From the NCBI RefSeq assembly GCF_024256425.1, contig NC_071110.1, positions 2,380,274 through 2,444,273 on the forward strand: DNA of 64,000 nt. The letters run 5' to 3'. The notes below the pieces were generated by a model. That model was not told where the DNA came from and did not search any database. It saw nothing but the letters and a program-made list of their open reading frames with translations. Of the stretch, positions 14,133 to 25,654 are shown piece after piece. Both the position numbers and the translations under genes were made by a program. Within the stretch, counting starts at the first letter, position 1, and each line of letters opens with the position of its first letter. The stretch is from Clarias gariepinus (lineage: Eukaryota).

Positions 14133-14963
14133 GTTACCAGAGTAATTTTTTTACTTTTTTAAATTAAAGAAACAATCACCAAGCTGCTTTCGTGTGATCT
14201 TTATTTATTATTCTTTCTTTTTTTTCATGTTACTCTTTTTCTTTGCTGCCTTTGGTGTTCGTTTTAGCTTAAACCGAATTACTAAATCAAACAAAAAAAA
14301 ACTCCAGAAACTTACATAGATTAACCCCAAAACAAACCCCCCAAAAATATATATATATCACAAAAAAAAACAGTTCACAATCTTTTAAGGAAAAAAAAAC
14401 ATAATTAAATGTACAACACCTTCCTCAACTTTGTAGTCAGAGTTCCATGTGCAGAAAACATTGAGTGCGTTGAAATGAAGTTTTTAGACAGACACAGACT
14501 GGATCCATCTTCCTGGATTTAGCCCAATTGCAGAAAACGTTGAGTGCGTTGAAATGAAGTACTTAGAAAGTCACGGTCTGGATCCCGCTTTCCTGCTCCT
14601 CCAGAACCACATACAAAGTTTCGTTCAGGTATTAAAAAAAATGCTGAGCGAACACTGTCCTTTCTTTTAGTGTCATCCAAAAACCCACCGAGCCATTTTA
14701 AGCTGTTTTAAGGAAAAACCCTCAAATTGAGCTAACAAAATCAACTGATTTCTCAATCTAGGTCCTGAGAGAAGTTAGGAGGCCAAAGAGAACATGACTG
14801 CCTGCTCCCACCACTAAACGAATCTCTCTTCTTCTTCCACCATCTACCGTTATATGCTGTATCAAACCCCTCTCAGGTGCCCTCTGGTGTCTAGTAGTAT
14901 TACTACCACCATTATAAGCATACAGCTAAGCAGAAAAACAATACTGGTAACTTGGGACAGGTT
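14133..14963 (-). repeat. Gypsy 3' LTR (about 831 bp)
   Basis: Near-identical to 19497..20197 plus 25497..25654. Starts TGTTACC and ends GGTTACA. The purine-rich PPT lies immediately adjacent at 14964..14977 (minus-strand CAAAGGGAGGGAAG). Confidence 0.8.
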
Positions 14964-15068
14964 ACACTTCCCTCCCTTTGAAAAAAAAAAATTTCACTTA
15001 ATGTGACAAATTTTAAGATTCTGTACATGGTAAGTATCTGTTGACATGGGATCAGAATTCAAAGCAAT

Positions 15069-18000
15069 TTAATAATTGACCGGCCCCAGTTTTTTTATGA
15101 CCTTGCCTGGACCTTTCCACCTAGGGGATAACTTAGCCATATACCCATCGTCTGCTTTGGATAAGGTGTGAGATCGCACCCAAACTATGTCCCCCACAGC
15201 GAACTCAACTCTCTTTCTTCGCTGATCATAGTACTTCTTTTGTCTGGCTTGTGATTTCTCCACATTAGCCCTTACCCGATCAAACAATTGTTGCTGCCGG
15301 TCTACCGTATCGTAGCTGGGTTGATCAGGGTTGGGTGGATTGTGCAAGACTCTTTCCAAAGGTCCGAGGAGCTTACGGCCCAAAGCAATCTCGGCAGGGG
15401 AGTACCCTGTGCTCTCATGCCATGCAGTATTTAATGCAAATCGGAAATCACAGATCCACTGGTCCCAGGAACGATGATTCTCCTGTACATATGAGGCAAT
15501 CATACTCTTGAGGGTACGGTTAACTCGTTCAGTCAAATTAGTTTGCGGATGATAGGCAGTAGTAAGTTTCTGTGTTACATTCCATTGTTTACATACCAGT
15601 TTGAGAAGATTAGAGGTAAACTGAGTTCCCCTATCTGAGACCAAAAAGGTAGGCGTTCCCCATCGTGTGAAAATCTCCTCTACTAAAATCTTTGCAATTG
15701 CTGGTCCTCTTGCAGAGCGTAGTGGGAATAATTCCACCCATTTTGAAAAATAATCCACAATGACCATCAGATACTCATGCTGTTTAGTACTACGGGGAAA
15801 AGGTCCCATTAGATACACTCCCAGCATGTATCCTGGCTCCACAACGTTAGTACTTTGCATTAGACCAGCAGGTTTGAAGGTAGTAGGTTTGTGCTGCTGA
15901 CATGTCACACACTCCCTACAATATTTCCACACATCCTGTCTTATCTCAGTCCAGTAAGAGAAATCCAGCAATCTCATCAGAGTTTTAAAACTTCCCAAGT
16001 GGCCACTTAAAGGACTGTCATGTGCATATCTTAAAAACAGTTCTTTAAAAACAGTTGGAACAACAACTTGAAATTTCTGACCCTTCTTCCCGTCAGGAAC
16101 ACTTCTGAATAGTACGCCATTTTTCTCCACAAAGTGTGTCCTCAAAGTGTCCTCTTGATCTCTTTGCCCACTCTTTGCAACCAGTTCCTGGATTTCGGCA
16201 TCTGCTTTTTGAGCTGTTGCAAGCTGAGACAAATCCACGGGTAGGTCAGTGGTGATGGTAGATGGATCAATTGCTGTAGCTACCATAATTACATTGGACT
16301 CAAATTGATGGGTCCTTGATAGGGCATCAGGTACAATGTTACATTGTCCTTTCCTGTAACGGACAACAAAATTAAATCCTTGTAAGCGAATGGTCCATCT
16401 CTCTAATCTTGAGGAAGGTTTTGGGTGATTAAAGGCCCATGTGAGTGCAGAGTGGTCTGTTAAAACTTCAAAACATCTCCCTTCCAAATAGTGCCTCCAT
16501 CTTTCCACAGCCCATACCACTGCTAAGCACTTCTTCTCAGAAGCGGAGTAAGCTTGTTCAGCCCCTCTCAGCAGTCGAGATGCATAGGCTATGACCCGTT
16601 CCTGACCCTCCACCTCTTGAGTCAATACCGCTCCAAGACCTGTGTCACTTGCGTCCGTTTGAACTTTGAAATCTAAAGTGAAATCTGGCACTGCCAACAC
16701 TGGGGCTTTAATGAGCTCCTTTTTGATCTCATCAAATGCTCTCTGACAGTCCTCTGTCCATTTCCATTCTGCCCCCTTTTTCTTCAATGCATGCAAAGGG
16801 GCAGCCTTGGAGGAAAAATTTTGAATAAAACGATGGTACCAACCAGCCATCCCAAGAAATCTCTGGACTTCCTTAACTGAAATTGGCACAGGAAAATTTT
16901 CCACTGCATTCACCTTTTCAGGATCAGTTTTAACTCCTTCAGCAGACACAATATGTCCTAGAAATGTCAGAGATGGTTGGATAAAATTGCACTTTTTTAG
17001 ATTGAGAGAGAGACCGGCATCATCCAAGAAGGTAAAAACCTCTCTCAAGTGCCTCAGATGAGTGGTGATATCTGGTGAAAACACCACAATATCATCAATG
17101 TACACCATGCAAAATTGATTTTTATACTTCCTCAGAACCTGTTCCATCAATCGTTGAAAGGATGCGGCAGCATTCCTAAGGCCGAAAGGAAGACACAAGA
17201 ATTCATATAACCCTGAGGAGGTGACAAATGCAGTCTTTTCAACACTTGTGGAGTCCATCTCTAATTGCCAGTACCCAGATTTTAGATCTAATGTGCTGAA
17301 AACCTTGGCTCCCGTCATGGTTTCCAAGATATTCACGATTTGAGGCATGGGGTAAGCATCTAAATGCGTCTTGGCATTTAGACCTCGATAGTCAACACAC
17401 ATTCTGGAGGTTCCGTCTTTCTTCTCGACTACTACAACAGGTGAGGCCCATGGGGAAGTGGATGGACGAATGATGTTTTTTTCCAACAACTCCTTAACTT
17501 GTCCTTCTATAAACTCACTCTTAGTAATCGATGCTCGATATGGCTTTTTCCTCACTGGATACTCATCCGTAGTGATGATTTTATGTTTCACCAACGAGGT
17601 ACGCCCTAACTTCTGAGTACATACCCTGGGCCACTCAGGCATTAGGCTTTGCAACATTTCTTTCACATCGGGTGAAGCCTCAGCCTTTTGAGCTACCTGG
17701 TGAATAAGTTCAACGTCTGCATCATCACATGCAATTTCCTCCTCTAAAGGAAGGGCAAGAAAAAAATGGTTGTTGGGTTGTATCACGGGGACGCTGACTG
17801 GCAAGGCTGGGACTGTGTCTACGTCTGGCAAATAGAATTGAGCAGAGTTAAAATCTATGACCATTCGTGACAGCTTTAAAAAATTCAGTCCCAAAATAAT
17901 TGGTACTGCCAAATCCCCATCTTGGAGTACATAAAACTGTACTATAAACGTCTTCCCCTGAAATTCACATCCCTCTCTTACTTGTCCAACAGCTTTTTGT

Positions 18001-24126: not shown

Positions 24127-25464
24127 CTAAGTATTATCTTGACTTGCTTGTGCATTCAGATTATTCCTTACCTCTTCCCATGTTAATTCACTCACTTCAA
24201 GATGATGTACAGCAGCCTTTACTATTATCTGAATTCTTTCTGTCTTTGATTTGATTTCCATTGTAGCATTTATTACACCTGCAATAAATGTTACCAATTT
24301 TTTAACATCTATTAGTGTTTTCTTCTCATTCATTTCTTCTTGTACTTCCATATTTTGTCTTGTCATTCCCGATCCTCCTTCCGCTCCTCCTTTTTGATTT
24401 ACTCTTTTTACTGCTTCTGCATATGTTATCTTGTCTTTTGTTTTAATTTGTTGAAGTTTCCTCTCTCTCTTCATTATTGCACACCCTCCATATGCTACAC
24501 TATGATTTCCTCCACAGTTGCAGCATTTTGGTTGTGTATTAACATTGCATTCTTCATATCCATGATTTTCTCCACATCTCGCACATCTTTTCTTCCCTTT
24601 ACACACTTTGGCCACATGCCCAAATCTTTGACAATTGTAACATCTTACTGGGTTTGGTATGTATTCCCTTACACTGTAGTTCATGCATCCTAGCGTCACT
24701 CTTGTTGGGAGCCTCTCTTCATCGAACACAATCATAATCCCCTCACTATCACTCCTTGTACCATCCCTCGTTGTTTGTAAACGTCTAACTTCTTTGATCT
24801 TTTCGCCTCGCATATTTGATTTAATATCATCCAAATTTATTCCGATTGGAATTCCCCAGATTACTCCTTTAGTCCATTTACTTCCTTCTCTGATATTACT
24901 CACATTTAATACTTTGTATTTACCGATTTCCTTGATTTTCTTTGCTTTTCCTCTTTGTTCCTCATTATTACAAACAATCAATAGATTCCCATCTCTTAAC
25001 ACTTTGGCCATGCAAATATCTCCCACTTGATTTTTCAATATTGTTGTCAGTTTTATTGGATTCATTGATGATATTCCATTGCCTTCGCCAAACCTAAGCA
25101 CAATTTTGTATGACATTGACTCTTGATTCCTTTCCTCTTGTCTGCCTCTTAATTCATCCAAGTTTCTAGCTTTTTTTGCATTGATTCCATCAAATTCACT
25201 TCCTCTTTTATTTTTTGATCTCGTTGATTCTTGGCTCATTTCCATACTATCATCACTGTTTTCCGTTTCACAATCTCCCCATTCAGGCCCATTTCCAGTA
25301 CAGCTGTGCCTTACCGCCATTCCTTTTCTTACTTCTCTTACTTTCCCAATTTTAGACCACATATTTCGATCTTGATCTCCAGCACACTTGTTCTTCTTTC
25401 TTTCTTTTCCATCCAGTAATTCAGAATTCTTTAACTTTTGGATTGTTTGCACAGTTTTCACCAT
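24127..25464 (-). CDS. LINE ORF1 (gag-like, CCHC zinc knuckles), intact
   Basis: The 445-aa ORF shows the C-x2-C-x4-H-x4-C pattern three times. Confidence 0.75.
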   Translation of the reverse strand: MVKTVQTIQKLKNSELLDGKERKKNKCAGDQDRNMWSKIGKVREVRKGMAVRHSCTGNGPEWGDCETENSDDSMEMSQESTRSKNKRGSEFDGINAKKARNLDELRGRQEERNQESMSYKIVLRFGEGNGISSMNPIKLTTILKNQVGDICMAKVLRDGNLLIVCNNEEQRGKAKKIKEIGKYKVLNVSNIREGSKWTKGVIWGIPIGINLDDIKSNMRGEKIKEVRRLQTTRDGTRSDSEGIMIVFDEERLPTRVTLGCMNYSVREYIPNPVRCYNCQRFGHVAKVCKGKKRCARCGENHGYEECNVNTQPKCCNCGGNHSVAYGGCAIMKRERKLQQIKTKDKITYAEAVKRVNQKGGAEGGSGMTRQNMEVQEEMNEKKTLIDVKKLVTFIAGVINATMEIKSKTERIQIIVKAAVHHLEVSELTWEEVRNNLNAQASQDNT

Positions 25465-25496
25465 TCCGCTATCTCGCCGCCATGTTGGAGGTGAGC

Positions 25497-25654
25497 CCTG
25501 TCTTCTTCCATCTCTCTTCTTCTTCCACCATCTACCGTTATATGCTGTATCAAACCCCTCTCAGGTGCCCTCTGGTGTCTAGTAGTATTACTACCACCAT
25601 TATAAGCATACAGCTAAGCAGAAAAACAATACTGGTAACTTGGGACAGGTTACA
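25497..25654 (-). repeat. Gypsy 5' LTR, distal part displaced by the nested LINE
   Basis: Matches 14808..14963 (ctctcttcttcttccaccatctaccgttatatgctg ... gggacaggttaca). Confidence 0.8.

Follow-up and report, generated by a model that had tools for sequence, protein, structure and literature searches.

A LINE nested in the 5' long terminal repeat of a Ty3/Gypsy retrotransposon in Clarias gariepinus, both disabled as assembled

A stretch of 64,000 nucleotides of the Clarias gariepinus genome (contig NC_071110.1, positions 2,380,274 to 2,444,273; hereafter the window) was analysed, in which a Ty3/Gypsy retrotransposon occupies 14132-25654 on the minus strand. Its 5' long terminal repeat (LTR) is split by a long interspersed nuclear element (LINE) of 5,307 bp, also on the minus strand, at 20203-25509. 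All open reading frames (ORFs) and elements in the nested pair share this orientation, and the three long ORFs named in the original prediction, of 1143 aa (15069-18500), 1157 aa (20367-23840) and 445 aa (24127-25464), are present where it had placed them. The placement of the LINE inside the Gypsy 5' LTR was likewise confirmed, with small corrections to its edges. Both LTRs lie where they had been drawn, apart from a shift of 1 bp in the LTR starts, and the breakpoints in the LTR are 20202/20203 and 25509/25510, not 20197/25497 (5-12 bp off). The 15-mer proposed as the target-site duplication (TSD) proved to be part of a perfect 16-mer, ATCTCTCTTCTTCTTC, found at both junctions. This 16-mer occurs only once in the intact LTR, in the context ...CGA-ATCTCTCTTCTTCTTC-CACC..., and deletion of 20203-25525 yields an LTR of 836 bp that can be aligned with the 3' LTR over its whole length. 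Since the LINE lies in only one of the two LTRs, has a TSD of its own, and restores the LTR when excised, the nesting and the order of events are right. Blastn found no further copy of the LINE, of the Gypsy interior or of the LTR in the window.

Repeats are often sites of misassembly, and the nested junctions might be regarded as an assembly chimera instead of a biological insertion. No direct evidence for a chimera was found here. A perfect 16-bp duplication of a sequence that the sister LTR has once, and a split LTR that excision restores exactly, are the signature of target-primed insertion, and a misjoin would not be expected to give them; a chimeric origin is thus improbable in the extreme. 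The nesting and the duplication go far beyond chance, and the arrangement is a true nested insertion. The features of the pair and of its neighbours are collected in Table 1.

Table 1. Features of the nested Gypsy-LINE pair and of two neighbouring elements, in window coordinates
Feature	Position	Strand	Remarks
Gypsy 3' LTR	14132-14966	-	835 bp, TG...CA, uninterrupted; holds the unduplicated LINE target ATCTCTCTTCTTCTTC at 14822-14837
Polypurine tract (PPT) AAAGGGAGGGAAG	14967-14979	-	directly upstream of the 3' LTR in element orientation; read from sequence
Gypsy gag-pol frame	14994-19364	-	1456 codons: gag, protease, reverse transcriptase (RT), RNase H, integrase, SH3-like C-terminus; three in-frame stops
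Gypsy in-frame stop 1	18987-18989	-	TAA, codon 126
Gypsy in-frame stop 2	18600-18602	-	TGA, codon 255, at a conserved Trp
Gypsy in-frame stop 3	15069-15071	-	TAA, codon 1432; cuts off the last 25 residues
Primer-binding site (PBS) TGGCGCCTGAACAGGGAC	19449-19466	-	29 nt from the 5' LTR
Spacer between 5' LTR and PBS	19467-19495	-	29 nt; about three tandem 9-mers, TAATAGA-like (TRF 19465-19501, period 9)
Gypsy 5' LTR, distal 707 bp (3' part in element orientation)	19496-20202	-	ends in the left TSD copy, 20187-20202
Gypsy 5' LTR, proximal 145 bp	25510-25654	-	100% identical to 14822-14966; opens with the right TSD copy, 25510-25525
LINE 3' tail	20203-20214	-	(GAA)4 on the sense strand; read from sequence
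LINE 3' untranslated region (UTR) stem-loop GGTGGCGGTAATGCACC...GGATGCCAACCGCCATT	20224-20265	-	conserved, 42 nt
LINE ORF2	20367-24111	-	apurinic/apyrimidinic (AP) endonuclease, RT, RNase H, C-terminal Cys/His motif; +1 frameshift in the G9 run 23914-23922
LINE ORF1	24127-25464	-	445 aa, open; three CCHC-type knuckles; 7 aa differences from the family consensus
LINE 5' head	25465-25509	-	45 nt between TSD and ORF1 ATG; contains AACATGGCGGCG; unrelated to the heads of sister copies
BEL/Pao-type remains	8259-13353	-	directly beside the Gypsy 3' LTR; Peptidase_A17 and RT in a 791-aa ORF; DUF1759 gag-like ORFs
Second LINE	27458-29980		840-aa endonuclease/RT ORF

The outer element has the structure of a Ty3/Gypsy retrotransposon. 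Its two LTRs (835 and 836 bp) are direct repeats with TG and CA at both ends, the Pol domains recognised by Pfam follow the order protease, RT, RNase H and integrase along the frame, a PBS is found near the 5' LTR, and a PPT abuts the 3' LTR. Its nearest homologues, at identities of 65% or less, are proteins of the fishes Misgurnus, Danio, Cyprinus and Labeo, which are single gag-pol ORFs of 1464-1499 aa. An exact-sequence look-up of the Gypsy ORF of the window returned no record. Like the fish Ty3/Gypsy elements with a single gag-pol ORF (Misgurnus, Danio and Cyprinus), the window copy combines TG...CA LTRs, PBS and PPT with one frame of about 1460 aa that runs from gag through protease, RT, RNase H and integrase to an SH3-like C-terminus, the chromodomain being absent. 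It differs from them in sequence (at most 65% identity), in carrying three nonsense codons, in having no TSD, and in its expanded spacer between LTR and PBS. The window element and its fish homologues may be Mag/Jule-like. The spacer is unusually long, as if expanded by slippage. The PBS is a candidate match to 17 of the 18 bases of the tRNA-Lys3-type PBS of HIV-1; no tRNA genes were found in the window for comparison.

The original prediction had described an intact Pol of 1143 aa. This ORF is open only between stops 2 and 3 of one continuous frame of 1456 codons, which is shared by the ORFs at 18987-19364, 18600-18980 and 15069-18500 and goes on for 25 codons past the third stop, to a TGA at 14994-14996. 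Comparison with the homologues identifies stop 2 as a TGG-to-TGA change (...KDW*KAE... in the window vs. ...KDWWRAE...). At stop 3, the homologues read ...GPVNY(K/R/Q)V...YHVQNLK... and extend about 25-45 aa beyond it, where the window has GPVNY*IALNSDPMSTDTYHVQNLKICHIK. When the stops were masked, Pfam recognised Retrotrans_gag spanning stop 2 and, spanning stop 3, SH3_Tf2-1 in its entirety (1-64 of 64). An autonomous LTR retrotransposon is expected to have uninterrupted gag and pol; in this copy two stops fall inside conserved domains. Three nonsense mutations have thus broken up the gag-pol, and the 1143-aa "Pol" is what survives as its longest fragment. Stop-codon read-through was considered and rejected, as stop 2 replaces a conserved Trp in the gag domain and stop 3 lies inside the SH3-like domain.

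No TSD of 4-6 bp flanks the Gypsy element, the bases outside its LTRs being TCCCG (14127-14131) and GTATG (25655-25659). This absence bears on the history of the window copy, not on its family membership. LTRs of the neighbouring BEL/Pao element, which might have explained the missing duplication, were sought and none was detected. The Gypsy might therefore not be a single clean insertion: it could be a recombinant of two related copies, or one flank could have been deleted or rearranged, and the LTR divergence would then date no integration. The unmatched flanks meet LTR edges that are sharply defined by TG...CA, and the dense transposon pile around the element offers many substrates for rearrangement. 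Nevertheless, its LTRs are merely 0.72% apart, the interior is collinear with the homologues with PBS and PPT in place, and neither a second copy nor a solo LTR is present in the window. Taken together, a recombinant or rearranged origin is a serious possibility, if on balance a doubtful one.

The LINE was also predicted to have an intact ORF2, which is not the case as assembled. ORF2 starts at the ATG at 24111, 15 bases past the ORF1 stop, and this start opens an ORF of 76 aa that matches the N-terminus of the AP endonuclease. The 1157-aa ORF is a partial one in the other frame; it starts partway into the endonuclease domain and is without the first ~90 codons of the endonuclease. The two frames meet in the G9 run, inside the endonuclease domain. 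If one G is removed, a continuous ORF2 of 1247 aa is obtained, with endonuclease, RT (FADD), RNase H and the C-terminal Cys/His motif. For comparison, six sister contigs were available, which are assembled from six public runs (SRR30889352-56 and -60) and are ~99.6% identical to the window LINE. All six of these Logan contigs read GGGGGGTG where the window has GGGGGGGGG, and each has an open ORF2, of 1235 or 1247 aa by choice of start. P0001 and P0296 are open across the site as well. A programmed frameshift was rejected as a candidate, the shift being inside the endonuclease domain and every relative being open there.

Against the six-contig consensus, the window LINE has 19 substitutions in 5156 bases (0.37%), the 1-bp insertion that shifts the frame of ORF2, and a 2-bp indel in the 3' UTR. 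Thirteen amino acids are changed, 7 in ORF1 and 6 in ORF2. Among the 17 private coding substitutions, the 13 that change an amino acid form a majority of the kind expected under neutral decay. One of the changes in ORF2 is G131E, in the GDFN motif of the endonuclease. Across 30 homologues, G131 is conserved in at least 90%, and its neighbours D132 and N134 are invariant, as are D676 and D677 of the FADD motif of the RT. A competent element would be expected to combine open ORF1 and ORF2, intact catalytic motifs and a complete 5' UTR; in the window copy ORF2 is frameshifted and carries G131E. Thus alignment to relatives reveals disabling mutations in both elements as assembled, an outcome that the original prediction had itself named as refuting it, and the view of them as intact, and of the LINE as possibly transposition-competent, is not supported. 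Judged on its sequence, the window LINE is decaying neutrally, and as assembled it could make no complete endonuclease.

If the extra G in the G9 run were a sequencing or assembly error, then the LINE would be coding-intact and possibly competent. The frameshift is indeed a single-base length change in a homopolymer of nine G, its removal makes ORF2 collinear with P0296, and the two LTRs also differ by an A-run indel that could be an error of the same kind. A pure length error would leave unexplained the T-to-G substitution that the site also shows against all six sister contigs. Nor would it remove the 13 private replacements, which include G131E in a near-invariant motif, or the predominance of amino-acid-changing substitutions that is expected under neutral decay, and the copy has just 45 nt upstream of ORF1. 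An intact LINE masked by one erroneous base is therefore unlikely, although it deserves to be kept in mind.

Of the 19 private LINE substitutions, nine change G to A on the sense strand and C-to-T changes are absent; only two lie in CpG. The asymmetry is marginally significant given the base composition (sense-strand G:C 2.4:1, P ~0.045). Such a bias could be the footprint of cDNA editing or of RT error, not of age.

The LTRs had been judged near-identical by eye, and alignment bears this out. Over 834 aligned bases, the rebuilt 5' LTR and the 3' LTR differ by 6 substitutions (3 transitions, 3 transversions) and by 2 indels that make up 3 gap columns, a divergence of 0.72% (Kimura two-parameter distance 0.0072). 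The divergence per LTR lineage is ~0.36%, with a wide error due to the small number of events (six), and that of the LINE from its consensus is 0.37%. Both insertions are thus young in evolutionary terms, as had been proposed, and under commonly assumed teleost neutral rates they would fall in the low millions of years. The LINE splits a Gypsy LTR and so must post-date the Gypsy. The proposal that it is younger still holds by this logic of nesting, but not by divergence, which is about equal for the two; on these sequence-based figures the insertions are indistinguishable in age. The LINE family looks recently active in its host, since at least six public runs gave near-identical contigs whose ORFs are open.

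Pfam matches in the LINE are Exo_endo_phos, Exo_endo_phos_2, RVT_1 and RNase_H (E = 1e-16). The N-terminal endonuclease, the RT with FADD and the absence of LTRs are those of an AP-endonuclease LINE, and the 16-bp TSD and the (GAA)4 end agree with the variable duplication and 3' simple-repeat tail of such elements. The best solved-structure match of ORF2 is human LINE-1 ORF2p (E = 1.6e-24), with the endonuclease of a silkworm LINE (TRAS1) and retroviral RNase H as further matches. About 100 LINE homologues were found; the closest named ones are from teleosts, and the nearest named proteins are auto-annotated as "jockey". Three Cys/His knuckles can be recognised in ORF1 by eye, the Pfam zf-CCHC score of 17.9 bits being under the cut-off of 20.8. 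An RNase H after the RT, combined with CCHC knuckles in ORF1, is the architecture of the I and Nimb clades. The LINE is thus a putative I/Nimb-like element, an assignment by architecture. Exact-sequence look-ups of its ORF1 and of the 1157-aa ORF returned no record, and Rfam gave no match at E <= 0.1 in 13500-26500. Both clades occur in teleosts (PMC9004415; PMC5753468), and the literature search yielded this occurrence only and no reference sequences.

In common with I and Nimb elements (Repbase I-1_DR and Nimb-n_DR in zebrafish), the window LINE has two ORFs with CCHC knuckles in the first, an ORF2 laid out as AP endonuclease, RT, RNase H and C-terminal Cys/His motif, a simple-repeat 3' tail instead of poly(A), and a TSD of 15-16 bp. 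It differs from them in its (GAA)n tail and in a 5' head that varies among near-identical copies. The Drosophila I factor ends in (TAA)n. Human LINE-1 is alike in its target-primed reverse transcription by a protein with AP endonuclease and RT, and in a nicked-target primer end that is complementary to the RNA tail. In contrast to LINE-1, to which its protein similarity is distant, the window LINE has an RNase H domain and zinc knuckles in ORF1, and its 3' end carries a conserved stem-loop and a (GAA)n tail where LINE-1 has poly(A).

On the sense strand the 3' end of the LINE reads ...CCGCCATTAAAACAGAG(GAA)4 and runs straight into the GAAGAAGAAGAGAGAT duplication. The stem-loop near this end folds at -20.7 kcal/mol (z = -2.2). 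It has 15 pairs, 2 of them with compensatory changes, across three families (46-60% protein identity), being kept in relatives at ~60% (from Leuciscus waleckii) and 46% protein identity. Elsewhere in the window, the LINE 3' motif has a match at chance level only. The Leuciscus relative (locus L007, CP165681.1) has a (GAA)n-like 3' end, ...AAAGAAGAAGA, and lies between the two copies (2510-2524 and 13376-13390) of a duplicated 15-mer, TAGGATTCATTAGGG, which is not a microsatellite. The tail and the length of the duplication are therefore seen as family traits, and insertion into (TTC)n as not obligatory. The same relative has a 5' UTR of ~260 nt with CRE- and ETS-like motifs, and a large insertion breaks its ORF2 between residues ~755 and 741.

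In the stringent-type fish LINEs UnaL2 and ZfL2, the RT recognises the 3' stem-loop. These elements, which belong to the L2 clade, resemble the window LINE in a conserved 3'-terminal stem-loop followed by a short simple-repeat tail. The window LINE is of a different clade and sequence family, and recognition of the stem-loop by its own RT is presumed.

These features suggest a course of events for the locus. A Ty3/Gypsy element would have inserted into a teleost chromosome, on the minus strand, or, given the missing TSD, would have arisen by recombination of two copies. Soon after, target-primed reverse transcription would have placed an I/Nimb-like LINE, oriented like the Gypsy, at a point 145 bp inside the 5' LTR of the latter. 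Its endonuclease may have nicked the plus strand of the window after ...TCTTCTTCTTC, and cDNA synthesis could have been primed by this 3' end, base-paired to the (GAA)n tail of the LINE RNA. The 16-bp duplication would have resulted from a further nick at a distance of 16 bp. The RT probably recognises the stem-loop that directly precedes the tail. Afterwards, both copies would have decayed neutrally. The original prediction had noted the (TTC)n stretch at the site as fitting the nicking preference of the endonuclease; the stretch is relevant to the target, being complementary to the (GAA)n tail, but is better read as microhomology between tail and target than as a known endonuclease preference.

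Sequence-specific LINEs, such as Koshi and Kibi, are known from fish, and the family might likewise be specific for (TTC)n/(GAA)n microsatellites. In favour of this, the target is TCTCTC(TTC)3, and the LINE has GGAAGAAGA at its start and (GAA)4 at its end. However, a single insertion of the family itself is visible here, and the Leuciscus waleckii element, the only relative with readable flanks, combines a (GAA)n-like tail with a duplication of non-microsatellite sequence. Microsatellite specificity is considered improbable.

The 5' end of the LINE is variable. The window copy and the six sister contigs have a common body down to 3-4 nt before the ORF1 ATG, and upstream of this joint four mutually unrelated heads were found (the window and loci L001, L003, L004, L005 and L006), with no similarity between heads above shuffled controls. 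One of them (L004/L006) is at least 400 nt long and has seven CCAAT boxes on the same strand. The "full-length" label of the original prediction is therefore unproven for a copy with 45 nt before the ORF1 ATG. The AACATGGCGGCG in this short head resembles a YY1 core site, and its AAnATGGCG motif resembles the YY1 site at the 5' end of L1. Since the head of the window copy lies inside the TSD, it travelled with the RNA. With bodies ~99.6% identical and at least four heads, the family may exchange its 5' end at a fixed point 3-4 nt upstream of the ORF1 start, an idea we hold tentatively and consider rather unlikely. Template switching and 5' transduction are possible routes of such an exchange, and the heads could represent alternative 5' UTRs, transductions, template switches or a truncation hotspot. 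If the exchange is true, and not an artefact of short-read assembly or a hotspot of truncation, it would mean capture of promoter or 5' sequence at a defined point.

The window as a whole is a dense transposon pile, largely transposon-derived, and the named close homologues of both elements are nearly all teleost, mainly from cypriniforms. Inverted repeats of 157 bp (25726-25882 and 30516-30672, 96.8% identical) enclose ~4.9 kb with the 840-aa ORF of the second LINE, and a further inverted pair lies at 25935-26093 and 26436-26598 (90% identical). On the minus strand, 2323-2916, 35856-36413 and 45606-46193 hold Harbinger/PIF-like DDE_Tnp_4 and Tc1-like DDE_3 transposase fragments and an ORF matching ALKBH8_N.

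Taken together, a LINE that inserted into a Gypsy element, with decay of both, is very probably the best explanation of the locus. Some observations weigh against it. Without a TSD, a simple single-integration history of the Gypsy is not established, and its LTR divergence may not date the insertion. The frameshift in ORF2 falls in a homopolymer of nine bases, where assembly errors classically arise; were it an artefact, ORF2 would be open, yet still with G131E and the other replacements. The I or Nimb clade is a putative assignment, made by architecture. Priming by tail/target microhomology draws on one insertion, and the one relative with visible flanks sits in a non-microsatellite site.

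The nested pair is genuine and moderately young, and consists of two ordinary types of retrotransposon in a fish genome, both disabled as assembled. Nesting of a LINE in an LTR is routine in transposon-rich fish genomes and has little meaning beyond annotation. The lesson of the locus is that a long ORF does not make an element intact: each of the two ORFs called intact is the largest remnant of a longer frame. For transposon specialists, the locus offers a recently active-looking LINE family whose 3' stem-loop is conserved, whose tail is (GAA)n and whose 5' heads vary in a puzzling way.

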